From: an uncultured archaeon
GTDB lineage: Archaea > Iainarchaeota > Iainarchaeia > Iainarchaeales > JAAZKV01
Direction: 5' to 3'
Length of the DNA: 64,000 nt
Assembly: GCA_964534045.1 (NCBI GenBank)
Contig: CAZHNO010000001.1
Location: 1,786 to 65,785, forward strand
In this document: positions 3,183 to 50,813 of the stretch, one piece after another
Numbering within the stretch: the first letter of the stretch is position 1
Layout: every line of letters starts with the position of its first letter
Position numbers and translations under genes: made by a program
The notes under the pieces: model-generated
Database searches by the model: none
What the model was told of the DNA's origin: nothing
Seen by the model: the letters and a program-made list of their open reading frames with translations, nothing else

Positions 3183-4010
3183 ATGGATCTATTTGCTGAG
3201 CTACAAAATTTAATGATAAAATATCATTTTAGACCAGAAAAAAAATTATCACAATTTTATTGTATAAATGAAGCTCTATTAATTTATTTAACAAAAGTTG
3301 CTCAAATAAATGATAGAGATACTGTTTTAGAAATTGGGCCAGGAACTGGTTTTTTAACACGAAGATTACTTGAAAAAGCAAGAAAAGTTTTTGTAATTGA
3401 AAAAGATAACAGCATGGTTGAATTATTAAAACAAGAATTTGAAGATGATGTTAATTCTGGAAGATTAAGAATTATTGAAGATGATGCTTCTCTTGTAGAT
3501 TATAATAATTTAGATATAGACAAAATTGTTTGCCTTCCCCCATATCATATTTCAAGCACACTTGTAACTAAAATAGCTATGTCAAAAATAAAACAAGCTG
3601 TTCTTGTTTTAGATTCTGGTTTTATAGAAAAATTAACTGCTTTTGAAGGCTTTAAAGAATATAATGCATTAACAGCATTGCTTTCTCTAAATGCAAAAAT
3701 AGAAGTTACTCAAGCAGTTGATAAAGATAGTTTTTTCCCAAAACCAAATTGTCAAAGTGCAGTTGTAAATATTGAATTTACTAAAATAGAAAATTCTGAA
3801 AAGTTTTTTACATTTTTAAAAGAGTTATTTAGACACAAAAATAAAGATTTATCTCGTGCAATGAAACAAGCAATGCCTTTTTTAGTTGAAAAATTAGAAT
3901 GGAAAAGCGATTCTAAAAAAATGGAAGCTTTAAAATATTCTGATAAAAAAGTTTATGCAATGAATCCTCAAGAATTACTTGAAACTTATAAATTTTGGAA
4001 AAAACCTTAA
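3183..4010 (+). CDS. rsmA: 16S rRNA (adenine1518/1519-N6)-dimethyltransferase KsgA/Dim1
   Basis: SAM-binding motif LEIGPGTGFLT and the LPPYHISS (NLPYNIS-like) motif; 275 aa. Confidence 0.85.
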   Translation: MDLFAELQNLMIKYHFRPEKKLSQFYCINEALLIYLTKVAQINDRDTVLEIGPGTGFLTRRLLEKARKVFVIEKDNSMVELLKQEFEDDVNSGRLRIIEDDASLVDYNNLDIDKIVCLPPYHISSTLVTKIAMSKIKQAVLVLDSGFIEKLTAFEGFKEYNALTALLSLNAKIEVTQAVDKDSFFPKPNCQSAVVNIEFTKIENSEKFFTFLKELFRHKNKDLSRAMKQAMPFLVEKLEWKSDSKKMEALKYSDKKVYAMNPQELLETYKFWKKP

Positions 4011-9459: not shown

Positions 9460-10326
9460 ATGAAAAAATCATTATCCACTGGATTAGTCATTGTAACAAT
9501 GTTCGTGCTAATTTTATTAGCACCTTTTATTCAAAACTTATTCCCAATTTCAATGAATGAACAATTTAGAATAATTTTATCCTTTGTAATTATTGGTGTT
9601 ATTTTTGTAATTGTACTTTTTATTTTAGTTTTTTTGAATAAAAAAGGAATAAATTCTCCAAAAAAAGAAGAAATAAAACCAATTAAAGCTGAAAGAATTG
9701 AAAAAAATGATTTAATTGAAAAAAAGGATGTTAAAGAAAATAAAAAAGTTGAAGAAGAGAAAAAAAAAGAAAAAGATAAATCTTTAAAACAGAAAAGAGA
9801 AGAGCTTGTTCAAAAATTAAATGAAGCTGAAAAAAAGTTTTTAAAAAATCAAATTGATAAGGATACTTTCCATTCAATATCTAAACAAGCAAATGCTGAA
9901 TTAATTAGTGTTGAAGCAGAGTTAGATTCTCAAAAAAAGATTAATCTTGGAAAAGATGAAATTAAACAATTAGATAATGTTTCGAAGGATAAGAAAAAAG
10001 TTTTACAAGATTTATTGGAGCAAAAACAAAAAAAAGTTTATGAAGCAAGAATAGCTGAGAAAAGTTTTTATAAAAGAAAAATAGATGAACCAACTTTTAA
10101 AAAAATAAGTTCTGATGTAAAATCTGAAATTATTTCTATAGATGGAAAAATAAAGGCAATTCAAAAAAGTGAAGAAATTGAAAAAATGAAAAAAGAACTT
10201 CTTGAAGGAACGAGAGAAGTAACAAAACAAAAACAAAAATCTGAAAAAAGAAAAGATGAGACTGAAATCTTTGAAGAAGATTTGTTTGCACAAATAGATG
10301 AAATGAGTGGTGGACTAAAAAGATAA
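9460..10326 (+). CDS. Membrane-anchored K/E-rich coiled-coil protein
   Basis: Two N-terminal TM helices followed by about 200 aa of a highly charged K/E repeat region. Confidence 0.4.
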   Translation: MKKSLSTGLVIVTMFVLILLAPFIQNLFPISMNEQFRIILSFVIIGVIFVIVLFILVFLNKKGINSPKKEEIKPIKAERIEKNDLIEKKDVKENKKVEEEKKKEKDKSLKQKREELVQKLNEAEKKFLKNQIDKDTFHSISKQANAELISVEAELDSQKKINLGKDEIKQLDNVSKDKKKVLQDLLEQKQKKVYEARIAEKSFYKRKIDEPTFKKISSDVKSEIISIDGKIKAIQKSEEIEKMKKELLEGTREVTKQKQKSEKRKDETEIFEEDLFAQIDEMSGGLKR

Positions 10327-33604: not shown

Positions 33605-33856
33605 TCATTCACAAGCCACCCCATCATCATCCCTATCTAAGTCGTGAATGTCTTTTTCGCATTGTTCAAATATTTTTTGTGCTTCTTTTTGTGTTTTGAA
33701 GTCTGAGCAATTGTAAATATTGTATGAACAATCAATTGATTTTAGTTCAATTGAATCTTTTTGTTCTACATAATTATTTTCTTTTTGAGTGCAACCAAAA
33801 AGAAGGAAGAGTAAAAGAAAGATAAATATTATTCCAAAAATAACAAACTTACTCAT
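33605..33856 (-). CDS. Excalibur calcium-binding domain lipoprotein
   Basis: C-terminal [12 protein letters not shown] is the Excalibur D-x-D-x-D-G-x-x-C-E motif. N-terminal signal with LFGC lipobox. Confidence 0.6.
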
Positions 33857-33956
33857 TAGTGATATACTATTAAGAAATATTTAAATACTTAATGATAATA
33901 TACTATTAGTAGATGAAGCATAGTATTTTAAAAAAAGAAGAATTACATATATCACA

Positions 33957-34091
33957 ATGGCAGAAATTATACTCAAAGGATACCAATGCGAAAGATGCGG
34001 ACACAAATGGGTTCCAAGAGAACAAAAAGAAAAACCAAGAGTATGCCCAAAATGTAAAAGTCCATATTGGGATAAGCCAAAGAAGAAATAA
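33957..34091 (+). CDS. Small zinc-ribbon protein (44 aa)
   Basis: MAEIILKGYQCERCGHKWVPREQKEKPRVCPKCKSPYWDKPKKK has two CxxC pairs. Not in the ORF track (under 60 aa). Immediately upstream of the C5-methyltransferase. Confidence 0.35.
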   Translation: MAEIILKGYQCERCGHKWVPREQKEKPRVCPKCKSPYWDKPKKK

Positions 34092-34218
34092 TTTTAGAAG
34101 CAATTATATATTTAGAATGAAAACACCCTTCAAAAACTTACAAGTAATACAAAAATGTTTAGTGGCACAAAACTAATATTAAGTTTATAAACAAAATAGA
34201 GATTAAATTTTATGTGGG

Positions 34219-35181
34219 ATGAGGATGAATAATAAAATAAAAGTTTTTGATAGCTTTACAGGTTATGGCGGTGCAAGTTGGGGTTTAAAGAAGGCAGGCA
34301 TTCCTTTTGAAGTTATTGGATATTCTGAAATTTGTCCAATGGCAATAGAATTATATGAATTAAATCATTCTCAAACCAAAAATTATGGAGACATCACAAA
34401 AATAAAACCTAACGATCTTCCAGATTTTGATTTATTCACTGGGGGTTTTCCATGCCAATCTTTTTCAACTGCTGGAAAAGGAATGGGTGAATTAGACACA
34501 AGAGGAACTTTGTTTTGCGATATTATAAGAATTTGCGAAGTTAAACAACCAAATTTTATTCTTTTAGAAAATGTTAAAGGATTATTGTCAAAAAGACACA
34601 AGGAAACTTTCAAAAAAATTATTAGCGAACTTCAAAGAATTGGATACAATGTAAGATATGAATTATTAAATTCAAAAGATTTTGGCATTCCTCAAAATAG
34701 AGAGCGTGTTTGGATTTTTGCAACTAAAAAACAAATACCTTTTGGTTGGCAATTAAGTCCACCTAAAGAAAAGTTAAAAAAGAATTTTAAAGACTTTTTA
34801 GATAAGAATGTAGATAAAAAATATTATAAAAATGAAAACCAAGTAATTAGATTAGAAGAAGTAACTGGAGTTAAATTAGAAGTTAATGAACCAACTTGCT
34901 TTGATGTATATAATAAAAAATTGAAAAAAGATGGGTTGTGCCTCACAATTACTGAACCACACCATAATACACTTAGAGTTGTTGAACCTAATGAAGATAA
35001 AAATAAAAGAGTTAGAAAAATGACTGAACAAGAACAATTTAAATTTATGGGTTTTGAAGAAAATGAATTAAATTTTGGTGAAATGTCATATACTAGATTG
35101 TCAAAATGTGCAGGCAATGGTTGGGATGTAAATTTAGTTAGTAAATTAATGAAAAGAATATTTGAAACAAAATGGGACTAA
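34219..35181 (+). CDS. dcm: DNA (cytosine-5)-methyltransferase
   Basis: Motif I FDSFTGYGG, motif IV GGFPCQSFS, motif VI ENVKGLL, motif VIII QNRERVWI, motif X CAGNGW; 320 aa. Confidence 0.85.
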   Translation: MRMNNKIKVFDSFTGYGGASWGLKKAGIPFEVIGYSEICPMAIELYELNHSQTKNYGDITKIKPNDLPDFDLFTGGFPCQSFSTAGKGMGELDTRGTLFCDIIRICEVKQPNFILLENVKGLLSKRHKETFKKIISELQRIGYNVRYELLNSKDFGIPQNRERVWIFATKKQIPFGWQLSPPKEKLKKNFKDFLDKNVDKKYYKNENQVIRLEEVTGVKLEVNEPTCFDVYNKKLKKDGLCLTITEPHHNTLRVVEPNEDKNKRVRKMTEQEQFKFMGFEENELNFGEMSYTRLSKCAGNGWDVNLVSKLMKRIFETKWD

Positions 35182-35726
35182 TTATATTTTTTATTCTTTA
35201 ACCTGTTTTTGTGATATTCATTATGTTTTTTTGCAAATTCTGATGGATAAGGAAAATGACTTTCTTGAAAATTCCAATCTGGATATTTTCCCTCTTTTGC
35301 AAAATATTCTTCTTTACAAAAGTCTTCCATTTCTTTAAAACTTGCTATTTCAACTTTCTTTGAACTTGATAAACCATTAATTGTAGCAAGAACTTTTGGA
35401 GAAGTTATTACATATAATTCAACTTTTGAACCACTAAGCAAAGCTTCTTCAATTAACAAATGGAGAACAAATCTTGGTACTCCCGGACTCCCAGTCATTG
35501 ATGTTACATAAAGGTTTATTGTTGATTTAATTCCCCCCTTTCCTGCGGACCCGCCAATTTTTTTTATAACTCCATCAAGAACAAATAAATACACGCGGGG
35601 AGTTTCATCTTTTAAATCATTTTTAGTTATCCCTGATAAATAATTAATATTAATTTTATTTGCATGCCCATCCCTTAGGGTGAATTCACCAAACTTTTTA
35701 GCATTAGTTGCTTCTGAAATATTCAT
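35178..35726 (-). CDS. Putative Type II restriction endonuclease partner of the C5-MTase (inferred from context only)
   Basis: 182 aa. Convergent with dcm, with a 4-nt overlap of the stop codons. No recognisable nuclease motif, so the call rests on arrangement. Confidence 0.3.
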   Translation of the reverse strand: MNISEATNAKKFGEFTLRDGHANKININYLSGITKNDLKDETPRVYLFVLDGVIKKIGGSAGKGGIKSTINLYVTSMTGSPGVPRFVLHLLIEEALLSGSKVELYVITSPKVLATINGLSSSKKVEIASFKEMEDFCKEEYFAKEGKYPDWNFQESHFPYPSEFAKKHNEYHKNRLKNKKYN

Positions 35727-35936: not shown

Positions 35937-36090
35937 TAAACCACCTCAAAATAAATAAAAATGAAAGTGTGTAAAAAGCAATCTTTTAATCAATATTATT
36001 TTAGTTATACTAATGCACATTTCAACCTAAACTTTAAATACTTATTAAGTTAGTCAAATAAAAGCAAAAAATAGCTTTTAAAACGGTTTT

Positions 36091-37308
36091 ATGAAAGAAC
36101 ATTATATGGAAAAAGCAGTAGATATTTCAAAAATAAAAAATAAGCTTATAATTATTCATTATTCTTGTTCCAACATAAACCATTCGTTTCCTGAAATATC
36201 TGCAATTTCCGTTTTTGACACAAATTTGTGTGAAACTCACACGTTTCCAAGATTTACAAAAGACAAAAATGATGAGATTAGATTATTAACTGAATTTTTT
36301 AATTATATCTCCCCAAAAATAGCGGAGAAGTACGGATTTGTCGGGTGGTATTGGGGGGATAAATATGGCCTGGATCAAATAATAAAAAGATATAAACAAA
36401 TAACCAAAAAAAGACTTGAATTCAAAAGTTCAGACCTGGTTGTTTATGATTTAGTAAAAATACTCTCCCACAACATAACCACGTTTCTAAGTGGCGGGCT
36501 AAAAAATCTTGCTAACTTTAATAATTTAAATACCTCAAATTTTATTGACGGCGACCAAGAGATTGAACTTCTTAAAAAACAAGAATTTGAACAATTAGCA
36601 GATTCCACATCCACCAAAGTCAATGTAATTTATGATTTATTAATAAGGTACTTAAACAAAACACTAAAAACTCCCACAATCGAAGAAATCTATTTTGATT
36701 TTAAGGATGTTGGAGCACACCCAATATTCAAAAATAATATAACCCAAATCAAGGAGTTAATTAATACCAAAAATGTTAATATACAAAATGAAGTTTTGGA
36801 AGAGTTCCTTAGAAAATTACTTTATGGAAATGTAATAACCTCTCTCGAGACTTACCTTTCCGACGAATTTACTAGAATCGTAATAAATGACAAAGGGTTA
36901 ATTTCAAATTATGTAAAAGAAAGCAAAAAGTTTAATGGGGATAAAACTAAATTCAGCGAGATATATTCAAATATGCTCCTGGAAAGCAAAAACGGAAACG
37001 ACATTTCAATAGAAAGGTATGTTCGTAGCAAATGTATTGCAGATATAAGAGACTTAACATTTCATAATTTAAATTTAATAAAGCCCCTGTATAAAAACGT
37101 TCTTGGAATTGATTTTCCTAAAAACTTAGATTCTATTTATAGGGCCATTGAAATAAGACACGATTTAATACATAGAAACGGAAAAGATAAAAATGACAAA
37201 ACCCTTAGAATTACATATACCCAACTTACCAAGATTATACGAGATTCCATTAGTTTTGCTAATCATATTCATAAACAAACAAAACAATTAAACATTTCCA
37301 ACAAATAA
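36091..37308 (+). CDS. Hypothetical protein with C-terminal Rx4H (HEPN-like / Abi-like) motif
   Basis: 405 aa. EIRHDLIHRNG fits the HEPN R-x4-6-H motif near the C-terminus. Downstream of the R-M pair. Confidence 0.35.
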   Translation: MKEHYMEKAVDISKIKNKLIIIHYSCSNINHSFPEISAISVFDTNLCETHTFPRFTKDKNDEIRLLTEFFNYISPKIAEKYGFVGWYWGDKYGLDQIIKRYKQITKKRLEFKSSDLVVYDLVKILSHNITTFLSGGLKNLANFNNLNTSNFIDGDQEIELLKKQEFEQLADSTSTKVNVIYDLLIRYLNKTLKTPTIEEIYFDFKDVGAHPIFKNNITQIKELINTKNVNIQNEVLEEFLRKLLYGNVITSLETYLSDEFTRIVINDKGLISNYVKESKKFNGDKTKFSEIYSNMLLESKNGNDISIERYVRSKCIADIRDLTFHNLNLIKPLYKNVLGIDFPKNLDSIYRAIEIRHDLIHRNGKDKNDKTLRITYTQLTKIIRDSISFANHIHKQTKQLNISNK

Positions 37309-37408
37309 ACTTTGTAAATAAACTCAACTAGTCTCAAATCAACTCACCCATCAATCCAAACCCCCCGAAACTATTTATTGAAATAATGCAAATATTTAAA
37401 CAACCATA

Positions 37409-37990
37409 TTGGTAAATTATATTATGGATTTAGGCACTTTTGCAATTATTATTCAAGCAATTGCTTCAGTAGTTTTAGTTTTAATCACAATATTTTATGC
37501 TTATTCCAGTCATAAAAATATCAAAGAAATGCAACTTACTAGAGAAATTGAAAATTTACCACGACTTATTCCAAAAATTGTTACTTGGTCTGACTTAGAA
37601 CATGGCTTTGAAACAAATGAGTTCCCAGTAATAATAAATACTGGAAAAGGAACTGCATTTAATGTAAAAATCAATATAGTTATTGAAAGTGATAATACTA
37701 ATTTAACTTGGACAACTAGTGCTTTAGAGCCTGGAAAAAGATTTGGAGATGGATATGATTATTTTGGCAATCCTGATTATACAAACACTAGTTTTTCAAA
37801 GAAAAAAACTTGTTTTAATATAGAATATGATACTTTATTAGGAAACTCCGTAAAAAATTCCATAATTTTAGAAAACCCAATTCCATTTAATGAATATGGA
37901 GAATCAAAAATTGTAAACCCAACAGATTTAGAAAAAATTTCTAGTTCAATTACAAAAATAAGTGAATTATTAGAAAAAAAATTTAAATGA
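37409..37990 (+). CDS. Membrane-anchored hypothetical protein
   Basis: A single N-terminal TM followed by a soluble domain; 193 aa. Confidence 0.35.
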   Translation: MVNYIMDLGTFAIIIQAIASVVLVLITIFYAYSSHKNIKEMQLTREIENLPRLIPKIVTWSDLEHGFETNEFPVIINTGKGTAFNVKINIVIESDNTNLTWTTSALEPGKRFGDGYDYFGNPDYTNTSFSKKKTCFNIEYDTLLGNSVKNSIILENPIPFNEYGESKIVNPTDLEKISSSITKISELLEKKFK

Positions 37991-38277
37991 AAAAAATAAT
38001 CTTTCTCACCTAAATCTTTAAACACTTCACAGCCACCCCCAGAGTAATTGTTGACTACTAAAAATAATTCCAAAACTAATTTTGATATTCAGGATTTATT
38101 TTTAAAATATAATAAAATTCCAATAATTATTCCAATTATTGAAAGCATAATTCCTGCAAAAAAGTCTTGTAGTGGGCTAATACGCACGAAAAAAAGAAAT
38201 ATTAAAAGAATTAATCAAAATTCAATAATGCCCATTTTGCCAAAGCATTTTTAAACTTAGAAAATTATTTTATTGTC

Positions 38278-38712
38278 ATGGAAAGAGTTAATAAAAAAAG
38301 TTTAGTTTATTCCACCATTTCAACGATCATTATTTCAATTTTATTAACCACCCTATCCCTAGTTTTTAATGAAAACTTTTTATTTATACCAGCCCAAATA
38401 TTCCTTTTGTTTGTTGGTTTTTACTTTTTATATTTCATAGTATTTGACTCTTTTGGCAAGGAAAATTCATTTATTTGCCAACTTACAAAAGAAGAAAAAC
38501 AATTTTTAAATAAAAAGAAAAATCCAAGACTTTTTTTATTTAATCAAAGCTTTATATTTTTAATTGGATTATTTTTAATACTTGCAGCAATTACTTCAGT
38601 TATTTTTAACTTTTTATTAATCCCACTAGTAGTTTTGGCTGGAATTTTATACATAGTTTGGTATTTTGTTTTAATTTATAATGATTTTGACTTGCCCTTT
38701 GGAGCTAATTAA
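38278..38712 (+). CDS. Polytopic small membrane protein
   Basis: 144 aa with 4 TM helices. Lies downstream of promoter/leader module copy 1. Confidence 0.35.
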   Translation: MERVNKKSLVYSTISTIIISILLTTLSLVFNENFLFIPAQIFLLFVGFYFLYFIVFDSFGKENSFICQLTKEEKQFLNKKKNPRLFLFNQSFIFLIGLFLILAAITSVIFNFLLIPLVVLAGILYIVWYFVLIYNDFDLPFGAN

Positions 38713-38826
38713 ACAAAAAAAGAAAACATTTAATTCAACCAACCCAAACTTTAAATACTTCACAGCCACTCCTAGTGTAATTGTTGACTACTGAAAAGAA
38801 AACTGATTCTAAAAAAATTAATATGC

Positions 38827-39123
38827 CTAAACCTTGACATTTAACAACATTTTTCTCAAAAAGACAACCATTATAACAATAATTCCAACAATAAAACCAA
38901 GATTAACAGCAGTTGCAATTTCATTTACTTGTCCTGTTACATCAATGCACATCCAAGCATCGTGGTATTCTCCACCAACTTTACAAGTCAAACTTTGACC
39001 AAAAATTGCTGACATTACTGCTGAATTAAAAACTAAAATAAAAATAAGAACTACAACAATAACAATCATTGCTAAAAGAACTTTTGGATTCTTTTGCAAA
39101 AACACTAAAAATGGAGCCTGCAT
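38827..39123 (-). CDS. 98-aa two-TM membrane protein with Cys-containing external loop (paralog A)
   Basis: Differs at one residue from 42030..42326. TM - TCKVGGEYHDAWMCIDVTGQ loop - TM. Confidence 0.5.
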   Translation of the reverse strand: MQAPFLVFLQKNPKVLLAMIVIVVVLIFILVFNSAVMSAIFGQSLTCKVGGEYHDAWMCIDVTGQVNEIATAVNLGFIVGIIVIMVVFLRKMLLNVKV

Positions 39124-39140
39124 AACTAAATTTAATTTTA

Positions 39141-39151
39141 AAGTATTTAAA
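39141..39151 (-). promoter_or_regulatory. TATA-like element (TTTAAATACTT on minus strand) about 20 nt upstream of paralog A start
   Basis: Reverse complement of AAGTATTTAAA. Forms a back-to-back divergent promoter pair with the 39176 element. Also present in the copy at 42344-42354. Confidence 0.4.
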
Positions 39152-39175
39152 CCTTTTTAAAACTCTCTGGCACCC

Positions 39176-39190
39176 AAACTTTAAATACTT
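39176..39190 (+). promoter_or_regulatory. BRE/TATA-like element AAACTTTAAATACTT (module copy P3)
   Basis: Matches the archaeal TATA consensus TTTAWATA with an A-rich BRE. The same 15-mer recurs at 38750-38764 (module P2) and 42379-42393, and in degenerate form in modules P1 and P4 (coordinates in the findings). P5 lacks the TATA block. Confidence 0.4.
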
Positions 39191-39359
39191 CCCAGCCACT
39201 ATATACCTAAGAGTAAAAGTTGACGGAAAAGATTGATACACAAGGCGATGAAAACAAATTATCCAATACTCATTCTGCGCAAAAATGTTGTTTTGGTTTT
39301 AACCTAACAAATTAAAAAGAATAAAAACCTTAACTAATCAGAGTTTTATTGGTGGTTTA

Positions 39360-39935
39360 GTGAAAATTAAGTTATGGTTGATTATTTTATTGTTTGCACT
39401 TATATTGTTTGCTTTTGGGTGCACATATTCAGGTGGGGGGAGCACCGACGTTAATAATATAGACGCCAGTAGAATTAACTTTTGTTCTGTAGATAGCGAT
39501 TGTACTTATATTTGGTACACTGGTGGGTGTAATAATCACAAAATTGTCGATATAATTAATGCAGAAAATGAAAAGAAAGGAATTATGATAGCTGCTGTAG
39601 AGCCAATAGATGGCAATGTATCCTGCACTTGCGAACAAGTAAGCGCAGAACTAAAACTTTGTCAAACACATGTTAAAGAGATTGATTCCTGCACAACAGA
39701 TGAAGATTGTATACTTGTTCAAAATGGATGCTGTGGATGCTCAGCTGGTGGCAGCAACACATCGATAAATAAAAAATACATGTTTTTCTGGAATAGAGAA
39801 ATTCTTGGTAGTAAATGCACTTCAGTAATGTGCCCAGCGGTAATGAGTAATGACTATACTTGCCATGGGCAAGTAACACCACATTGCACAGTTGAAAACA
39901 AATGTGTGTTGTCCCCACCACTACTTTATGAATAA
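39360..39935 (+). CDS. Cys-rich secreted lipoprotein
   Basis: GTG start. Signal peptide with FAFGC lipobox and about 24 Cys in 170 aa (CSVDSDC, CCGCSAGG, CPAVMS...C). Confidence 0.45.
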   Translation: MKIKLWLIILLFALILFAFGCTYSGGGSTDVNNIDASRINFCSVDSDCTYIWYTGGCNNHKIVDIINAENEKKGIMIAAVEPIDGNVSCTCEQVSAELKLCQTHVKEIDSCTTDEDCILVQNGCCGCSAGGSNTSINKKYMFFWNREILGSKCTSVMCPAVMSNDYTCHGQVTPHCTVENKCVLSPPLLYE

Positions 39936-40009
39936 TTACTTTGAGCCCTTCAGAAAATTTTTAAATAAACCATCCCCCACAAAACTCTTTTATATCCGCC
40001 CGCTTATTT

Positions 40010-40309
40010 ATGTCTACGGGAGATGATTGGATGAGTAGGAAACAAAAAGCAAGAAATGTTTACCAGCGTTCTTGTAAAGATTGGGAAGCGACTAAGTTTG
40101 CAATTATTGTAGCTTTTGTTTTTGCATTTATTATAACCTTTCCTTTGTATTTTTTTGACATCATTGGAGGACTCACTGCTCTTTTGATAGGAGCACTTAG
40201 CCTTTTGTTTTTTACTGCATTAATATCAATATTATTAATCACTCTTGAGGAAAGTCTTGAAAAAGATTTATTTCCTAAAAAGAAGTTAAAAAAATTTTCC
40301 AAAAAGTAG
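40010..40309 (+). CDS. Small membrane protein
   Basis: 99 aa with two TM helices. Confidence 0.3.
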   Translation: MSTGDDWMSRKQKARNVYQRSCKDWEATKFAIIVAFVFAFIITFPLYFFDIIGGLTALLIGALSLLFFTALISILLITLEESLEKDLFPKKKLKKFSKK

Positions 40310-40324
40310 CTTTTAGCTTATAGA

Positions 40325-40630
40325 CTAATTTCCACGTCTCGCTGTTGTAATAAAAATTTTTCTCATTGCAAAAATTAACACAGAAATAATGCCCCCAATT
40401 AAAACCCAATTAACAATTGTTGCTTCGCCATTCATTTGTCCTGAATTATCAACACACTTCCAACTAGAATTTTCTACTTCTCCATTTCCGCAAGTTAAAT
40501 CCTGCCCAAAAACCATTGATAATAAGGCTGAATTACAAATCATAAACGCTAATAGTAAGACAACCACTGCAACAAATACCAAAACTATTTTCCAATCTCT
40601 ACGAAGAAACTCTAAAAATGACAATCCCAT
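40325..40630 (-). CDS. 101-aa two-TM Cys-loop membrane protein (diverged paralog B)
   Basis: Same architecture as paralog A and about 45% identical (CNSALLSMVFGQDLTCGNGE...WKCVDNSGQMNGEATIVN). Confidence 0.5.
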   Translation of the reverse strand: MGLSFLEFLRRDWKIVLVFVAVVVLLLAFMICNSALLSMVFGQDLTCGNGEVENSSWKCVDNSGQMNGEATIVNWVLIGGIISVLIFAMRKIFITTARRGN

Positions 40631-40731
40631 TAATTAAATTTAATTTTTTAGTATTTAAACCTTTTTAAAACTCTCTTGCCCCCAAACTTTATATACAACC
40701 CCTCACTTGTCTGGAGATTGTTGAATACAAT

Positions 40732-41928
40732 TTAATTATCTAGTAGTCCGCCCCACTCAACAACAGTGAATCCTTTTCTTTCAAATGGTGTGATTTGTGG
40801 TTCTTCAATTTGAATTGGTTTATCAAGTGGTTTAAAATAAAATATTAATCGTAAAATTGAATCTGGTTTTGGGTTTATGTTCAAACTTAAATTCTTTTCC
40901 AAAAAGTCGTTTGAAAATAATTTAATTTCATAATATTTAGAATCATTTAAGTGTTCAAGCCAGTATTCTTTAAAATCATTAATTTCTTTTGTATTCATTC
41001 CCATTTCTTTTAATTTTATATCAAACCATTCTGGCAAATTGTCTTTCTTAACTATCCATCCCTTGTTTGATAAATTATAATTGTTAGTAAACAATTTCAT
41101 TTCATAAAATAAGTAATCATACTTGTTGTCAATAAGACCATTCTTTTCAACAAAAACATTCCACCCATTGTTATATGCTGGAATTGTTTGTGTGAACACT
41201 CCATTTAAACCTAAGTTAACTTGCACTTGAGTATCAGTTTCAGGATATAGATAAATTGCTGGTTTAGCAATAACTGGCATAGTAACAAATCCTAAAAATA
41301 AAAAAGCTAATACAAGTAAAACAACCAGAATTAATGCGGTTTTAGATTTTCCTTTTTTGGATAATTTGATAAACCCAAATAGAAGCAATCCAATAAAGAC
41401 AATTAGTCCAATCACCATTAAATCAGCAATTTGTGTAAATCCAACGGAAGGTCCCACATAAGGCATATTTCCTCTTTCAAATATAATTACACAACATGGT
41501 TCAAATCCACACCAGTCAGTTGGCTCATATTCCATAACTATACTTTTATTATCAATTACTTGCGATAGTTCCTCTCCTGTTTGTTCACACATTATTTGTG
41601 CCTTTACAGCAATACTTGTACTTATATTATTTTTAATAAAAAAACTGTCTTCATTTATACCAGTTTTTAACATTTCATTATTGTAAAAATCACCAGCATA
41701 AAAAATAATTGACCTTGAATCAAAACCAATGTTTTCAAAATAAGAACTTTGTATTACATCTCCTGGTTCAAGAATAAAAATTGGGGTTTTAGTATAACCC
41801 CCACCCCGAACAGCAGATAATGAATTGGAAAGAGTACTTCTAACAACATCTCCTGTCGGGGATAATACGCCAAAAACACCAGAAAATAAAAGTACAAATA
41901 TTATACTGATAATAAATAATTTTTTCAT
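40732..41928 (-). CDS. Secreted protein with central TM anchor, unknown function
   Basis: 398 aa: signal peptide, an about 140-aa domain, two TM helices, then an about 200-aa C-terminal domain. Confidence 0.4.
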   Translation of the reverse strand: MKKLFIISIIFVLLFSGVFGVLSPTGDVVRSTLSNSLSAVRGGGYTKTPIFILEPGDVIQSSYFENIGFDSRSIIFYAGDFYNNEMLKTGINEDSFFIKNNISTSIAVKAQIMCEQTGEELSQVIDNKSIVMEYEPTDWCGFEPCCVIIFERGNMPYVGPSVGFTQIADLMVIGLIVFIGLLLFGFIKLSKKGKSKTALILVVLLVLAFLFLGFVTMPVIAKPAIYLYPETDTQVQVNLGLNGVFTQTIPAYNNGWNVFVEKNGLIDNKYDYLFYEMKLFTNNYNLSNKGWIVKKDNLPEWFDIKLKEMGMNTKEINDFKEYWLEHLNDSKYYEIKLFSNDFLEKNLSLNINPKPDSILRLIFYFKPLDKPIQIEEPQITPFERKGFTVVEWGGLLDN

Positions 41929-42029
41929 AAAGCTATCAAATTAGAGGTTTTTTCTTTAAAAATATATCTAAGGGACATGATTGACTACAAATAATGATTC
42001 CGAAGCTGATTCTAAAAAAATTAATATGC

Positions 42030-42326
42030 CTAAACCTTGGCATTTAGCAACATTTTTCTCAAAAAGACAACCATTATAACAATAATTCCAACAATAAAAC
42101 CAAGATTAACAGCAGTTGCAATTTCATTTACTTGTCCTGTTACATCAATGCACATCCAAGCATCGTGGTATTCTCCACCAACTTTACAAGTCAAACTTTG
42201 ACCAAAAATTGCTGACATTACTGCTGAATTAAAAACTAAAATAAAAATAAGAACTACAACAATAACAATCATTGCTAAAAGAACTTTTGGATTCTTTTGC
42301 AAAAACACTAAAAATGGAGCCTGCAT
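42030..42326 (-). CDS. 98-aa two-TM Cys-loop membrane protein (paralog C)
   Basis: Near-identical copy of 38827..39123, inside the 424-bp direct repeat. Confidence 0.5.
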   Translation of the reverse strand: MQAPFLVFLQKNPKVLLAMIVIVVVLIFILVFNSAVMSAIFGQSLTCKVGGEYHDAWMCIDVTGQVNEIATAVNLGFIVGIIVIMVVFLRKMLLNAKV

Positions 42327-42378
42327 AACTAAATTTAATTTTAAAGTATTTAAACCTTTTTAAAACTCTCTGGCACCC

Positions 42379-42393
42379 AAACTTTAAATACTT
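42379..42393 (+). promoter_or_regulatory. BRE/TATA-like element AAACTTTAAATACTT about 27 nt upstream of the oxidoreductase TTG start
   Basis: Spacing is consistent with a leaderless or short-leader archaeal transcript. Confidence 0.45.
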
Positions 42394-42419
42394 CACAGAT
42401 ACTATATACCTAAGGGAGT

Positions 42420-43808
42420 TTGTTGACGAAAACTACTGAAAATAAAACTAATTCTGAAAAAGATAATAACTCTAAATACGATGTCTTGATTATTGGCGCA
42501 GGCCCAGCAGGCATATTCGCAGCTTATGAACTAGCAAAATCTTCTAAGAAAAGAGTTTTAGTAATAGAGAAAGGAAACCTAATAGAAAATAGACAAAAGT
42601 GTGAAGTGATGACGGGTTTTGGTGGAGCGGGAACTTTTTCTGATGGAAAGTTGCATTTTACTCCTGTTCTTTCTCATGAAAAGATGTTTCATCTATACGG
42701 CAAGGAAGAGTATCAGAATTTGATTGATTATGTGGAAAAAATTTTGTTGGATTTTGGTGTTCCTCCGGAGTATTATCCCAAGGATAATGATAAGGTTAAT
42801 GATTTAGTGGAAGAGGCAAAAAAACATAATATTAAGTTGTATGTGAGAAAAACAATTCATGTTGGCAGTGATAGGTTACCAAAAATAATGAAAAATTTTC
42901 AAAACTATTTATTAGAAAATAATATTGAAATTTTGCCTAAAACAGAGGTAAAGGATTTGGTAATAAATAATAACAAAATTGAAGGAGTGTTGTTAGCAAA
43001 TAACGAAATTATTAGAGCAGAGAAAGTAATTTGTGCTCCAGGAAGATATAATGCTAAGTGGATGCAAACTATTGCAGAGAAACATGGTTTGGGAGAAGTT
43101 TTTGAAAAAGTAGAGGTTGGAGTAAGAGTAGAGTTTCCTTCTGAAGTATTGAAAAAACACGCTGAAGAAATGTATGAAACAATTTTTTCTATGTATACGC
43201 CTACATATGATGATGTGATTAGAACTTTTTGTCCTTGTCCAAATGGGCATGTGGCAATAGAAAAATATGATGATTTTGTTTGTGTTAATGGACACTCAAA
43301 TCACTTCCATGATTCTAATAATAGTAATTTTGCTTTTGTTACAGAAATTACTTTAACAGAGCCTTTGGAAAGCACTAGAGCTTATGCTACTTTTTTAGCA
43401 CAAGGAGTAACTTTGTTAGGTTCAGGAAAACCTATTGTTCAAAGGTTAAAGGATTTGAAAAAAGGAAGGAGAAGCACGAAGGAAAGGATTGAAAGAGCAC
43501 ATATTTTGCCGAGCTTAAAAGAAGCTGTGCCGGGAGATATAGGGATGAGCATGCCTTATAGGGTTGTAAAAAATATTATTGAAGGAATTGAAATGTTGGA
43601 TAAGATTTTACCTGGTTTAAACGCAGATTCAACATTTTTGTATGCTCCAGAGGTTAAATTTCGTTCAAATAAAATCAAAACAAATAAACACTTAGAAACT
43701 GATATAAAAAATCTTTATGTTGCTGGAGATGGTGCAGGAGTTGCAGGGAATATTGTTGGGGCTGCAATTACTGGGGTAATTGCTGCGAGAGGGATTATTG
43801 ACAATTGA
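42420..43808 (+). CDS. FAD-dependent oxidoreductase (COG2509-like uncharacterised dehydrogenase)
   Basis: TTG start. The DVLIIGAGPAGIFAA dinucleotide-binding motif follows a 20-aa N-terminal leader. C-terminal GDGAG...GNIVGAAITG FAD motif; 462 aa. Confidence 0.65.
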   Translation: MLTKTTENKTNSEKDNNSKYDVLIIGAGPAGIFAAYELAKSSKKRVLVIEKGNLIENRQKCEVMTGFGGAGTFSDGKLHFTPVLSHEKMFHLYGKEEYQNLIDYVEKILLDFGVPPEYYPKDNDKVNDLVEEAKKHNIKLYVRKTIHVGSDRLPKIMKNFQNYLLENNIEILPKTEVKDLVINNNKIEGVLLANNEIIRAEKVICAPGRYNAKWMQTIAEKHGLGEVFEKVEVGVRVEFPSEVLKKHAEEMYETIFSMYTPTYDDVIRTFCPCPNGHVAIEKYDDFVCVNGHSNHFHDSNNSNFAFVTEITLTEPLESTRAYATFLAQGVTLLGSGKPIVQRLKDLKKGRRSTKERIERAHILPSLKEAVPGDIGMSMPYRVVKNIIEGIEMLDKILPGLNADSTFLYAPEVKFRSNKIKTNKHLETDIKNLYVAGDGAGVAGNIVGAAITGVIAARGIIDN

Positions 43809-43822
43809 CGAACTCTTGCTTA
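43803..43822. repeat. 20-bp direct repeat AATTGACGAACTCTTGCTTA (left copy)
   Basis: Exact copy at 44749..44768. The left copy overlaps the oxidoreductase stop codon. Confidence 0.8.
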
Positions 43823-43854
43823 GTTTTTTAAATCTCACAAAATGAAATTTTCTT

Positions 43855-44748: not shown

Positions 44749-44768
44749 CCTTATCATAAATTGACGAA
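44749..44768. repeat. 20-bp direct repeat AATTGACGAACTCTTGCTTA (right copy)
   Basis: Exact copy of 43803..43822. Confidence 0.8.
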
Positions 44769-44854
44769 CTCTTGCTTAAATTTAAAAACTCAAAGAAATT
44801 AATTTCTAAATGAAATTAGAAAGACTTATATTCTATAGTGTTCTATATCTTACT

Positions 44855-46883: not shown

Positions 46884-49800
46884 ATGAAAAAGATAGTAAA
46901 AATTTGGTTAATCGTTATTTTGATAGTTTTAGCTATCGTATTAATAAACTCAAATTTTTCTTTCACAGGGCTTTTTTTGCAAAAACAGGAATCAATTAGT
47001 TTTTCAGGAATTTGTAATAGCAATAACATTTGTGAAATTGGAGAGGATGATGAAAATTGTCCACAAGATTGTTTACCCAGGGCACCCAAAAATGAAAACT
47101 GCTTGTGCATTTACAGAAACGGAGATATTAATTCAGAAAAAATCTGTGAATATTATGCTGAAAAAAGGCCAGGAGTACATACTCTTGGTTTAAACTTAAG
47201 TTCAGGGATAGAAAGTGCACAAAAAAGCGTATTCATTTCTGAAGTTATTGATCCTCTTTGGGAATGGGTGGAAGCAAATGATGAATTAAAAATAACTCAT
47301 TTGGCAGTTGCAAGAGGCATTCCTACTGAAGTAATAATTGGAAATAGAACATATGGTGCTGCTTCAATGTTAGCCCTTTCAAAAGAATTTTATGATATTA
47401 GTCCTGGAATATCAGGAAATACACTAACTTTTATTCACTTTGATCCTGAAAAATATAAAACTGATGATGGAAAATATACATTCAGATTTGCTGTATCTTA
47501 TTTAACTGCTTATCAATTGGAAGATGTTTTAAAAATGATTGATAAAGCACAAGCCCCTATCCAAAATTTTGATGAATTAAAATGGTTTTTTGATGCGGAT
47601 GAAGATGAATTTCCAACAACTAAAATAAACTTAAAACAAGTTAAAGCAGAGTTAATAAAACAAGGAGTTCTTCCAGAAAATATTATTCTTGATTTTAACA
47701 ATGCTTTGCATACAAATCCTGAAGGCCCGATAATTGGATTTAATAGTGCAGGAAGACACCACACCGGTTATAGTCATTTATGGATGACACAAGAAAAATA
47801 TTTTAATCTTGAAGTTGCTAATCGCGCAATAATGAGTAGCGTTGAAAGTTATAATGCACACACTTTTTTTGGAAAACCTGATGAAAATATTGACGAAAGA
47901 ACAATTGGCCAAGGAAGAATTGCTGATGCTGTAAGCAAGATAGCTTTTGGGGGAGAAAATTATTCAAATAGTTTTGCAGGAGCAGGGGGAAATGTTACAG
48001 AACCATATCTGGGGTATCACATGAATGCAGAAAGATTTTTACCAGCATATGCTACTGGTTTAACACTTGGTGAAACTTTTTTAACAACACACCCATTAAG
48101 ATGGACTGCAATAATGATTGGAGACCCTTTAATGAGATTGATTGAAGATGATAAAGTTGGTTTACCAAATGGTACTGCTTGTGAAAATAATTCTCAATGT
48201 TATTCTAGAATTTGTGGAAATTCTCAAATTGGAGAAAAATTTTGTCATGCAAATCAAAATAATTGTGTTTATACTCAACAAAGTTTTGTTTATGATCTTA
48301 TGAATGGAAACAAAATTTGTAAGGAAATTACGAGCCAAACTGATATTTTATTTACTTGTGAAAATGGTACTTGGAAATTAGAAAAAGCCCCGGAGGAATA
48401 TTTGTGTAAATCAGTAAACTCTTTTTGGGATTTTGACGCAGACTTTTTTAAAAAAAATGGATTAGTTTGTTTGTCTGATGAAGAGTGTTATTCAAATGAT
48501 TGTAAAAAAGATTTAAGTGGAATAAAAAGATGTCAAAATAAAGACATTTGTCCAGTAAATAAAACTCAATATGTTAATAATAATTCATTTGCTTGTGTCT
48601 CAGAAAACCAAAAAATAAAATGTGTTAATGGTGAATGGGTAAACGGAATAATCAATTGCGATAATGAATGTATTGATGGAATGTGTTTGGGCGAATTTTT
48701 TACCCCTCCAAATATATTTACTATTGAAAAAAACAGGGATTATTATATGGCATTACCCATTAATCCTTCTTCAAAAAAAGTAAGTGATATTTTTGGAACA
48801 AATTTAGATTCTGGTAATCAAATTTATTTTTTTAGAAATAGTTGGACTTCAACAAGTTTTATTAAATTTGGAACAATTGAACAGTGGAATCCTGATTTGG
48901 AAATTAAAAATGGCGAGGGTTTTTTATTGAATCTAAATAGTGATATTAACATAATTATTGAAGGAGATGAAATAACTGAATCATTTCCTATTGAAATTAA
49001 AGGAAGTTCTAATTTGATAGGAATTCCAACACTGGGTAAAAAAAGAATGGCTTCTGAAGTTTTAGAAGAAATTAATTTACTAGATGATAGCTGTTATACA
49101 ATAAAATCTGGAGGAGGAAATGGAAAAAGTTATTCTATTACTAATGAAGGTGTTGAAGGAGAAGATTTTGAAATTTTTAATTATATTGCTTATTGGATTA
49201 TTTGTGATGAAAATACTAATATTACTTGGGTGCCTTTTGAAAATGAATGTACTCCTGGAGAATTTTGTGGATTAAATAGTTGTGAAGCAAATTATTGTGT
49301 TGATAATTTACTAAAAAAATTTCCACAAAATTGTGAAAAATTTTGTAATAATAACAGAGAATGTGTAGGTTGTTCTTGCACAGTAATTGAACAAAATTGT
49401 GGTTCAAATGCACTATGTTCTAATGGGGTTTGTTTAAGTTGTGGAGATAATTTTGCTAATTGTGATGGGATTACTGGCAATGGTTGTGAAATAAATGTTA
49501 AAGAAGATAACGGAAATTGTGGTTCTTGTGGAAATATTTGTGGTGATGGTAAAGAGTGTATTAATGGCGTTTGTGAAGATATAAATTTATGTAAAAATAT
49601 AAATTGTGGAACGAATGCATTTTGTAAATCTGAAACAGGTTCTTGTGAATGTTTTAACAATTATTTAAATTGTGATAATAACTTTAGTAATGGATGTGAG
49701 CTTAGTACAAGTACAGGTTGTCCAGAATGTGAAAATAATGAAAGTAGACTTTGTGTAAATGAAAAATTGTGTTTAGGTTCGCAAGCTTGTGAAAATAAAA

Positions 49801-50813
49801 AATGGAATCAATGTTTAATTGAAACTGAATGTGAATTTGGAGAAGTAAGAACTTGCACTCCAAAAATTAATGGTGAAGATTGTAATTTAGTATTAGGAAA
49901 TCAAACATGTAACAAATGTGGGCAATGGGAAGCTTGCACAGTAAGTAGTAACATAAACTGTTGCAGTGGAAAAAAAGAAAATTGTTTTATAAATGGTTGT
50001 GAAGGAAAAAAACATTGTGTGGGTTTTATTTGGCAAGATTGTAAAAAAAATGATTTGCTTTGTGGATTAAACAACACTAGCACATTTGACTTAGATAATT
50101 TAAGCACTTCTAACACTAGCGAAGGTAGTTCAAATTTTTGTAAAAATAGTGATTGTGGTGAGGATGAATACTGTGTAGAAAATAAGTGTGTTAAGTTAGA
50201 GTGCATAGATGGATTTATAATAAAAAATCATGAATGTGTCTGTAATGGAATATTATGTAATGGATTTTGTTACGATACTATTGGAATTTGTTGTAATAAT
50301 AATTGGAATGAAGAGCTTGATTCTTGTGAAACTGAAAGAAATATTGTTTTAAATATAGTCATGAATTCAAAAAATAATGAAGCAATCAAACTTTATGATG
50401 AAGCTGAAGAATCAATAAAAAAAGGAGAAATTAAAAAAGCAAAAGCTCAGCTAAAAATTGCTGAGTTGAAAGCAAAAGAAAATATTAAAAATAAAGAGCT
50501 TGTTTATGAAAGCTTAGAAAAAATTAACCTTGCAATGCAAAATGAAAAATATTCTGAAGCAGAAAACCTCGCAATAGATGCATTAAATAATCTGAAAAAA
50601 GAAAATGAATTTGAACAATTTATGGATGGAGATTTTGCACAAACCATCTTACTAATCTTAAGTATTATTTTTTTATTAATTATTATTGTTGAAGTTAGTC
50701 CAAGAGTTTACAAAAAAGTGAAAAATAAAAGTGGTGGAAAGAAAAAAAATAAAAAAATAGTCAAAAGTGAAAAAGAAAAAATCTTAGAAGAACTAAAAAA
50801 ACAATTTAAATAA
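46884..50813 (+). CDS. Giant (1309 aa) cysteine-rich cell-surface protein with C-terminal TM anchor
   Basis: N-terminal signal/TM and an about 400-aa globular region. Then about 700 aa of EGF-like Cys-rich modules (…NCDGITGNGCEINV…, …NCDNNFSNGCELST…). A coiled-coil stalk, TM helix and K-rich cytoplasmic tail follow. Confidence 0.6.
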   Translation: MKKIVKIWLIVILIVLAIVLINSNFSFTGLFLQKQESISFSGICNSNNICEIGEDDENCPQDCLPRAPKNENCLCIYRNGDINSEKICEYYAEKRPGVHTLGLNLSSGIESAQKSVFISEVIDPLWEWVEANDELKITHLAVARGIPTEVIIGNRTYGAASMLALSKEFYDISPGISGNTLTFIHFDPEKYKTDDGKYTFRFAVSYLTAYQLEDVLKMIDKAQAPIQNFDELKWFFDADEDEFPTTKINLKQVKAELIKQGVLPENIILDFNNALHTNPEGPIIGFNSAGRHHTGYSHLWMTQEKYFNLEVANRAIMSSVESYNAHTFFGKPDENIDERTIGQGRIADAVSKIAFGGENYSNSFAGAGGNVTEPYLGYHMNAERFLPAYATGLTLGETFLTTHPLRWTAIMIGDPLMRLIEDDKVGLPNGTACENNSQCYSRICGNSQIGEKFCHANQNNCVYTQQSFVYDLMNGNKICKEITSQTDILFTCENGTWKLEKAPEEYLCKSVNSFWDFDADFFKKNGLVCLSDEECYSNDCKKDLSGIKRCQNKDICPVNKTQYVNNNSFACVSENQKIKCVNGEWVNGIINCDNECIDGMCLGEFFTPPNIFTIEKNRDYYMALPINPSSKKVSDIFGTNLDSGNQIYFFRNSWTSTSFIKFGTIEQWNPDLEIKNGEGFLLNLNSDINIIIEGDEITESFPIEIKGSSNLIGIPTLGKKRMASEVLEEINLLDDSCYTIKSGGGNGKSYSITNEGVEGEDFEIFNYIAYWIICDENTNITWVPFENECTPGEFCGLNSCEANYCVDNLLKKFPQNCEKFCNNNRECVGCSCTVIEQNCGSNALCSNGVCLSCGDNFANCDGITGNGCEINVKEDNGNCGSCGNICGDGKECINGVCEDINLCKNINCGTNAFCKSETGSCECFNNYLNCDNNFSNGCELSTSTGCPECENNESRLCVNEKLCLGSQACENKKWNQCLIETECEFGEVRTCTPKINGEDCNLVLGNQTCNKCGQWEACTVSSNINCCSGKKENCFINGCEGKKHCVGFIWQDCKKNDLLCGLNNTSTFDLDNLSTSNTSEGSSNFCKNSDCGEDEYCVENKCVKLECIDGFIIKNHECVCNGILCNGFCYDTIGICCNNNWNEELDSCETERNIVLNIVMNSKNNEAIKLYDEAEESIKKGEIKKAKAQLKIAELKAKENIKNKELVYESLEKINLAMQNEKYSEAENLAIDALNNLKKENEFEQFMDGDFAQTILLILSIIFLLIIIVEVSPRVYKKVKNKSGGKKKNKKIVKSEKEKILEELKKQFK

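Follow-up and report, generated by a model that had tools for sequence, protein, structure and literature searches.

One described counterpart of the locus reported here is the archaeal 'dark-matter island' (Makarova et al.; PMC6393860), a descriptive category rather than a mechanism, and this general concept was the only precedent that we found in the literature. Like those islands, the region from 38.0 to 42.5 kb of the 64,000-nucleotide (nt) stretch analysed here (contig CAZHNO010000001.1 of an uncultured archaeon; hereafter the window) holds uncharacterised, lineage-specific genes for small membrane and secreted proteins, displays local duplications and adjoins a probable restriction-modification pair of defence-like character. 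Particular to this island are its scars, a series of modules (P1 to P6) that carry all or part of the promoter and 5' end of a neighbouring flavin adenine dinucleotide (FAD)-dependent oxidoreductase gene, set among three paralogous genes (g98A, g98B and g101) for proteins with two transmembrane (TM) segments. We read it as a lineage-specific 'dark-matter' expansion island that grew by repeated segmental duplication beside the conserved FAD gene, with breakpoints inside the 5' end of that gene, and we hold this reading to be right with a probability of roughly 70%.

In kind, the process would be ordinary duplication with gene conversion, a known type of event that involves no new mechanism. Tandem or segmental duplication with gene conversion, by non-allelic homologous recombination (NAHR) or bacterial amplification-reduction, shares with the island the direct units, the novel join of unit end to unit start, the truncated breakpoint gene, the identical core inside diverged flanks and the potential for deletion or amplification; here, however, no copy-number heterogeneity was seen in assembled contigs, the units are separated by unrelated genes, and the repeated scar consists of the promoter and first codons of a neighbouring housekeeping gene. 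Integron cassette arrays are likewise made up of small, mostly orphan genes with a recurring short element between them and a fixed gene adjoining, whereas our genes lie on both strands, no attI/attC hairpins were found in the modules, and no IntI appeared among the ~45 open reading frames (ORFs) of the window scanned against Pfam, NCBIfam or PADLOC (large ORFs between 29 and 51 kb); moreover, the recurring element here is a promoter, while integron cassettes are typically promoterless. Campbell-type or site-specific integration also brackets DNA with partial duplicates of the target end and regenerates the intact gene on one side, but the present locus differs in its variable relic ends, its host-like composition and the lack of integrase, replication and mobility genes among the scanned ORFs. 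As for antigenic variation at pilE/pilS of Neisseria or vlsE of Borrelia, nearby repeats and conversion among surface-protein genes are held in common; here, in contrast, all copies of the surface-protein gene are complete and have promoters, exchange between a near-identical donor and recipient gives no new variant, and what is truncated is the gene of a cytoplasmic enzyme rather than that of the surface protein.

Judged by its archaeal housekeeping genes (DUF655, eIF-2B family, diphthamide synthase and class I tRNA synthetases) and by FAD orthologues 66-86% identical in metagenome-assembled genomes labelled Candidatus Iainarchaeum, 'ainarchaeum' or unclassified archaea, the window is chromosomal DNA of an AT-rich archaeon of the Iainarchaeota/Diapherotrites type, a tiny DPANN organism of symbiotic type. 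Its GC content is 26-34%, and the composition of the locus is the same as that of the remaining window.

The duplicated g98 cassette and its putative back-to-back promoters

A self-BLAST of the locus, a check that the first-pass annotation of this DNA had proposed, recovered the repeat and the module homologies alike. The near-identical direct repeat placed there at 38803-39226 and 42006-42428 was confirmed by blastn as 430 ungapped nt of 97% identity (38800-39229 against 42003-42432). Copy A (38800..39232) is a complete cassette comprising a T7 tract derived from a relic, the g98 coding sequence (CDS), back-to-back promoters and the FAD start. Copy B (42003..42435) is 97% identical to it, and its left context matches at 100% contig L003 (40021-42394), one of the per-sample assembled Logan contigs from SRR11845623, SRR11845624 and SRR11845625 that furnish our sibling-sample evidence. 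All 15 differences in the 433 nt fall within the outer 86 nt, the ends being ~70% identical, and the central 347 nt (38845-39191) show none whatever; not one of 200000 permutations reached a difference-free run of such length, for which the analytic estimate is ~3e-9. An identical tract between homologous borders that are older and have diverged speaks for recent gene conversion acting on older duplicates, or else for a very recent copy that would have landed within older homologous flanks; whichever origin of the core holds, the alignments indicate that the cassette copies recombined more than once. With this core and with the mosaic modules described below, the earlier picture of a recombination-prone locus holds as history.

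The copies lie in direct orientation and are homologous over the whole unit, as segmental duplication requires, and the third (g101) unit aligns over 320 nt (E = 1e-22, blastn). Between the long repeats, 2.77 kb hold four genes, for a 191-aa Cys-rich lipoprotein, a 99-aa two-TM protein, the 101-aa paralogue and a 398-aa protein; the first-pass annotation had correctly named a lipoprotein and membrane proteins but had counted three genes.

The three minus-strand paralogues are g98A (38827-39123; 98 aa), with two TM segments and a loop between Cys47 and Cys59 that is predicted to face outward; g98B (42030-42326; 98 aa), in which V96A is the sole amino acid difference from g98A; and g101 (40325-40630; 101 aa), a diverged paralogue of 38-42% amino acid identity. 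All three products show two hydrophobic segments and a loop with two Cys, and the motif FGQxLTC...WxCxD..GQxN is conserved among them; the view of them as three related two-TM, Cys-loop genes is thereby borne out. No homologue beyond these three genes was found by a word-indexed search of 5.8e9 proteins or by full HMMER over 1.84e9 representatives; one match, P0004, was rejected as spurious, being a long repeat protein. AlphaFold, given 3 sequences, models g98 as a helical hairpin that includes a short beta-loop (pLDDT 62). The model, too weak to support a search by fold, agrees with but does not prove a topology (N-in/C-in, two TM segments) that would turn a disulfide loop outward.

The g98 and g101 units are unequally conserved along their length, the promoter block being 89% identical, the CDS 57% and the third codon positions 52% (dN 0.57, dS 0.86 for g101 against g98), a pattern which suggests that the promoter block either is strongly constrained or was separately converted. 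This block of 71 nt is present in three copies of 89-99% identity, namely block A (39123-39193, with inverted TATA 11-mers at 39141-39151 and 39180-39190), the block of g101 (40631-40701 proper, 89% identical to A and B, within the bidirectional interval 40631..40730, where the weak P4 remnant abuts the stop of the 398-aa gene) and block B (42326-42396, with the same inverted 11-mer pair). It carries the exact inverted 11-mer AAGTATTTAAA / TTTAAATACTT, arms 28 nt apart, that is, two TATA-type elements back to back, and its occurrence at all three places upholds the pairing of P3, P4 and P6 with minus-strand promoters that had been noticed at first sight.

The element TTTAAATA lies 28-29 nt 5' of the ATG of g98 and g101 and 37 nt 5' of the TTG of the FAD gene. 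These positions fit leaderless or short-leader mRNAs as established in archaea, g98 being apparently leaderless. With the usual archaeal distance of ~25-30 nt from TATA to transcription start, a transcribed leader would be at most ~7-10 nt; what had been termed the 'leader' of the modules is for the most part the spacer between TATA and start. The 15-mer AAACTTTAAATACTT, which combines the B recognition element (BRE) and TATA box, occurs exactly at 36029, 38746, 39176 and 42379; the copies in P2, P3 and P6 had been recognised earlier, that of P2 at 38750-38764 instead of its actual position 4 nt leftward (38746-38760), and the copy at 36029 had gone unlisted. Of a stricter motif, [AC]AANTTTAWATA, 5 of the 6 occurrences in 64 kb are at this locus, which argues that the module copies share ancestry and do not merely reflect a genome-wide promoter consensus. 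A further palindromic, back-to-back TATA pair (AAGTATTTAAATATTT / AAATATTTAAATACTT) stands at 33857-33912 between two divergent ORFs of ~85 aa (33605-33856, minus; 33913-34176, plus); the TTTAAATACTT element is thus reused elsewhere without the rest of the module.

Relics of the FAD-gene 5' end

The FAD-dependent oxidoreductase gene itself (42420..43808, plus strand; 462 aa, intact; Pfam GIDA, Pyr_redox_2 and FAD-depend_C) follows P6 (42372..42476), which comprises its presumed working promoter, the TTG start at 42420 and the first 19 codons. Only behind P6 is the gene intact, as had been claimed, and the other modules, all on the plus strand, carry less of it. P1 (38008..38087), the oldest-looking relic, retains a degenerate FAD promoter and ~13 FAD codons (MLTTKNNSKTNF). 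P2 (38742..38831) has the intact BRE/TATA 15-mer and the equivalent of FAD codons 1-19, and terminates exactly at the g98A stop. P3 (39172..39232) consists of the promoter and ~4 codons (TTGACGGAAAAG) and faces the Cys-rich lipoprotein gene 130 nt downstream. P4 (within 40631..40730) is a TATA half with a weak remnant of spacer and start ('TTGTTGAATAC'), its resemblance ending at ~codon 3. P5 (41965..42034) has the spacer (CTAAGGGA...) and the equivalent of codons 1-19, joined to g98 as in P2, while the promoter of the 398-aa gene has taken the place of its BRE/TATA or overlaps it.

Pairwise, P1 matches P2 over 60 nt at 87% identity (blastn, E = 6e-13), and P2 (38742..38831) matches P6 and the FAD codons (42375-42476) over 102 nt at 74.5% (E = 2e-11). 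Leave-one-out nhmmer, the basis of our module statistics, gave E values of 4e-8 for P1, 6e-16 for P2, 6e-8 for P3, 3e-13 for P6 and 6e-3 for P5 (7.5e-5 when P2 was also omitted). P4 alone reached E = 1.7; its remnant 'TTGTTGAATAC' is not significant, and its TATA half is homologous through the 71-nt block only. Of the six modules first described, five (P1, P2, P3, P5 and P6) are therefore significant, and P4 stands for its promoter part alone. No further copies were detected by nhmmer outside 38.0-42.5 kb in the 64-kb window. A possible seventh copy, P0 (36023..36043, plus strand), has the BRE/TATA only (CAACCTAAACTTTAAATACTT), 58 nt 5' of a 405-aa gene, and 20 of its 21 nt are identical to P2 at 38740-38760; as a full module it was rejected, the match being limited to the 21-nt BRE/TATA (nhmmer E = 2.4).

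The spacers fall into two forms, a shorter one in P1 and P2 (CAGCCAC[C/T]CC.AG.GTAATTG) and a second one (TATA(T)CCT.AGGG) in P3, P5, P6 and L013, the contig of the closest available genome, whose FAD product is 86% identical. Some modules are mosaics of the two, P3 combining CAGCCAC with the second spacer form and P5 the second form with P1-like codons.

The direction of descent can be read from L013, in which the FAD gene has the same promoter, spacer and N-terminus (AATCTTTAAATAC...CTATATCCTGTAGGGAAAGTTTG...AATTCCAAAACTAATTTT) and whose FAD 5' end is 86% identical to P1 positions 38051-38087; the N-terminal motif (ENKTNF / NSKTNF) is present at the FAD genes of both L013 and L009, with ENKTNF kept in L009. 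Promoter and N-terminus being orthologous at L013, descent runs from the FAD 5' end to the relics and not the reverse, and on these alignments we take the modules to be relics of the FAD promoter, start and first codons, which supports their first description as promoter-plus-leader relics. The 24 related FAD loci that we compared yielded none of the small island genes and no relics of the FAD 5' end or its promoter. Extra matches at these loci were a low-complexity region (L005), a simple repeat flanked by Ns (L009) and a signal-peptide repeat between paralogues (L015).

The relics also record how the units were joined. At 38831 and at 42034 the equivalent of FAD codon 19 is joined to the g98 stop codon, the same join in both copies, so that the end of one unit meets the start of the next, and the truncated FAD 5' ends align with the intact gene; a tandem duplication of the unit formed by g98, the promoters and FAD codons 1-19 is expected to yield precisely this join.

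Three observations on the related loci stand apart from the modules. In L013 the FAD gene is split at 3229-3260 into two overlapping ORFs, a frameshift or sequencing error near residue 386. At 2478-3300 of L015, two tandem paralogous genes, whose small products of 176 and 92 aa are rich in Cys and anchored at the N-terminus, share a 75-nt repeat of 85% identity and are divergent from the orthologous FAD gene, a layout analogous but not homologous to that of the window. In L009 a AATTTAAACAATAAACAATTT simple repeat with an N run lies 5' of the FAD gene (9700-9880), an assembly gap in a repeat that is unrelated to the modules. Within the window, a minus-strand mini-ORF (38092-38193) for a 34-aa single-TM peptide ends with its stop directly at the P1 relic, an arrangement like that of g98 at P2 and P5; we do not claim 38088-38277 as a decayed g98-type unit, the alignment having a z of only ~1.7.

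Probable duplication with conversion and the competing explanations

From these data we infer an order of events in which the duplicated unit would be a self-contained expression cassette, composed of minus-strand g98, the back-to-back TATA pair and the first codons of the divergent FAD gene. Its right-hand breakpoints would lie inside the first 4-19 FAD codons, and each round would consequently have left a scar of promoter, start codon and N-terminal codons. The genes for the 144-aa, 99-aa and 398-aa proteins and for the Cys-rich protein of 191 aa now lie between the units; later exchange between copies would have produced the mosaic modules, and the latest exchange would have homogenised the 347-nt core of the two g98 cassettes. 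A duplication of this sort would provide an immediately expressible second g98 together with a spare, outward-facing promoter, and two independently promoted g98 genes, identical but for the one residue, may double the dose, with one diverged paralogue in addition. Relic promoters may also drive neighbours, as P3 may do for the lipoprotein gene, and P2 and P4, which point antisense into g98A and the 398-aa gene, may yield short antisense or peptide transcripts. Directly after the g98 stop the FAD relic has turned into an A7/T7 tract, reading CTAAAAAAATTAAT where the intact gene reads CTGAAAAAGATAAT. Since T-runs as a general rule end transcription in archaea, this tract could act as an oligo-T terminator for g98.

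Several points weigh against this reconstruction. The order of events has no unique solution, and a Campbell-type insertion of a circle would give the same A-X-A layout. Synteny around the FAD gene is not kept even by L013, the nearest genome available, where the genes next to the FAD gene are ones that the window lacks, so that the ancestral layout could not be inferred. Selection, and not conversion, could account for how well the promoter block is conserved, and promoter activity, transcription starts and terminator use are predictions drawn from motifs. Finally, no assembly other than that of the window itself shows copy B joined to the FAD gene (42395 onwards).

If duplication with conversion is the right account, the locus offers a clean and datable example of a reduced DPANN genome making new small membrane-protein genes, in which a promoter-gene cassette was copied, recombined and diverged, and the scars from the neighbouring enzyme gene record the breakpoints. 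It would yield an orphan family of two-TM, Cys-loop proteins and, besides, a compact and well-defined candidate for a bidirectional archaeal promoter.

The first competing explanation, and an unlikely one, sees in the locus a device for repeat-mediated variation, in which RadA-dependent recombination between the 430-bp repeats would delete or amplify the 3.2-kb unit within the population and so alter the set or dose of surface proteins. The 347 nt of perfect identity in direct orientation are, on general knowledge, enough for homologous recombination, the conversion-like pattern shows that the copies recombined recently, and the intervening genes all encode membrane or secreted proteins. The sibling contigs, too, might be thought to favour it. 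Independent contigs from the three samples tile 36417-42394 at 100% identity (L001/L037, 36417-39191; L002, 38621-39570; L038, 39414-40771; L003, 40021-42394), and two of them, L001 and L003, break off exactly where the copies first differ on the right (39192/42395). Such ends, however, arise because two right flanks exist, as is expected of any two-copy repeat in a de Bruijn graph. These contigs show one arrangement only, that of the window, and no junction of a deletion, circle or amplification was found among them, minority variants being beyond the reach of assembled contigs. Exchange between g98 genes whose products differ by one residue gives no variant, deletion is one-way, and no dedicated recombinase was found among the scanned ORFs; the surface-variation mechanism that the first-pass annotation had considered is thus left without support. 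Every genome with a direct repeat has such potential, which is not in itself a mechanism. Were read data to show active excision or amplification, the locus would become a modest instance, in an uncultured symbiont, of dosage variation driven by repeats.

An integration hot spot, at which mobile cassettes or small circles carrying a FAD 5' end insert repeatedly at the FAD start by site-specific or Campbell-type recombination, is no less doubtful. Each insertion would restore the FAD gene and leave an att-like partial duplicate, and partial copies of the target's 5' end do flank the blocks, with the intact gene always restored on the right; the inserted genes are mostly orphans, and the restriction-modification-like pair and other unknown genes lie just leftward. 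On the other hand, the scan of ORFs revealed no integrase, transposase, invertase or reverse-transcriptase domain, and the relics end at four different FAD positions (~codons 3, 4, 13 and 19) with no common att-like core. There are no terminal inverted repeats (TIRs) at the locus, where the sole inverted repeat is the TATA 11-mer pair, and the modules folded as DNA give no hairpins (z -0.9 to +0.5). Nothing similar in DNA or protein came from the viral, phage and plasmid collections searched: no contig of the JGI metagenomes or of viruses matched the promoter block exactly, the lipoprotein had no relative in viral contigs, and the whole 4.5-kb locus had no BLAST match in phage or plasmid collections. 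The 24 related FAD loci without relic copies likewise speak against a hot spot, as do the GC content, which is the host's, and the 398-aa gene, elsewhere an ordinary chromosomal gene. Four known classes of element were rejected on the same data: an integron, there being no IntI in the scanned ORFs and no attC-type hairpins; a site-specific integrative element, for want of an integrase in the scan and of a constant core at the junctions; an insertion sequence or miniature inverted-repeat transposable element, since there are no TIRs and no dispersed copies in the 64-kb window, the metagenome or the viral contigs; and an invertible promoter or shufflon, the long repeats being direct rather than inverted and no invertase having been found in the scanned ORFs.

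A bolder proposal, to which we give even less credence, is that the FAD start is a recombinase-independent site of cassette capture, where incoming blocks bring a bidirectional promoter and the first codons of their target. Were it true, the housekeeping gene would always be rebuilt and each captured orphan membrane-protein gene would arrive with a ready promoter, a promoter-propagating and integron-like growth of DPANN surface-protein repertoires, and the 3.2-kb unit could still cycle, being excised and re-integrated through the 347-nt identical core.

The least credible explanation is an assembly artefact, whereby the assembler would have doubled or misjoined what is really one g98 cassette, or would have strung together the versions of two strains. 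In its favour, the 347-nt core exceeds typical short reads and k-mers, the copy B-to-FAD join is in no independent contig, and exact look-ups of the FAD product (with two start codons), the NYN product and the lipoprotein gave no match. Against it, contig L002 from another sample (38621-39570, 100%) runs right through copy A into unique sequence on either side, L003 contains the core of copy B together with its left flank, and L038 bridges 39414-40771. The two copies are told apart by 15 differences and lie within dissimilar flanks that diverged earlier, and the diverged third paralogue shows real duplication at the locus. An artefact is therefore unlikely where copy A and the left-hand side of copy B are concerned.

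Other genes in and around the island

Between P1 and P2 lies a gene for a 144-aa multi-TM protein (38278..38712, plus strand) with a TATA-like element of its own. The Cys-rich lipoprotein gene (39360..39935, plus strand; 191 aa, 17 Cys, lipobox-like signal FAFGC) is a near-orphan with one weak partial homologue; it has a GGTGG Shine-Dalgarno-like element, and a TATA of its own is not obvious. The 99-aa two-TM gene (40010..40309, plus strand) has no family match above the curated cut-off, and scans of domain libraries gave no family assignment for the 144-aa, 99-aa, 193-aa and 405-aa products. The 398-aa membrane-protein gene (40732..41928, minus strand) is of resident type and not an orphan. 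Its C-terminal ~180 residues form an unnamed domain widespread in DPANN archaea and in bacteria of the candidate phyla radiation (CPR), with >1373 homologues drawn from these two groups and from Ignavibacteria; none of the Pfam models matches it above threshold. A full-length homologue of the protein adjoins the thermosome gene in marine Diapherotrites, and in other Diapherotrites the genomic contexts are different.

Directly to the left of the island, a C5 cytosine DNA methylase gene (34219-35181, plus strand) overlaps a convergent 182-aa ORF without family match (35178-35726, minus strand), and the two are probably a type II restriction-modification pair bordering the island. The 405-aa protein encoded at 36091-37308 matches nothing in Pfam, NCBIfam or PADLOC and has an Rx4H-like motif (EIRHDLIHRNG) near its C-terminus, from which one might guess, without verification, at a HEPN-type nuclease.

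To the right of the FAD gene, a 47-nt direct repeat (43803-43849 and 44759-44805), the first 20 nt of which (AATTGACGAACTCTTGCTTA) are identical, is found 5' of the gene for the NYN-domain protein and between a divergent 82-aa ribbon-helix-helix (RHH)-like gene and an 86-aa gene; it may be the shared operator or promoter of a toxin-antitoxin-like set. Farther on, at 46884-50813, a 1309-aa protein without a Pfam domain is signal-anchored and extremely Cys-rich, which suggests that the organism invests heavily in disulfide-rich surface proteins.

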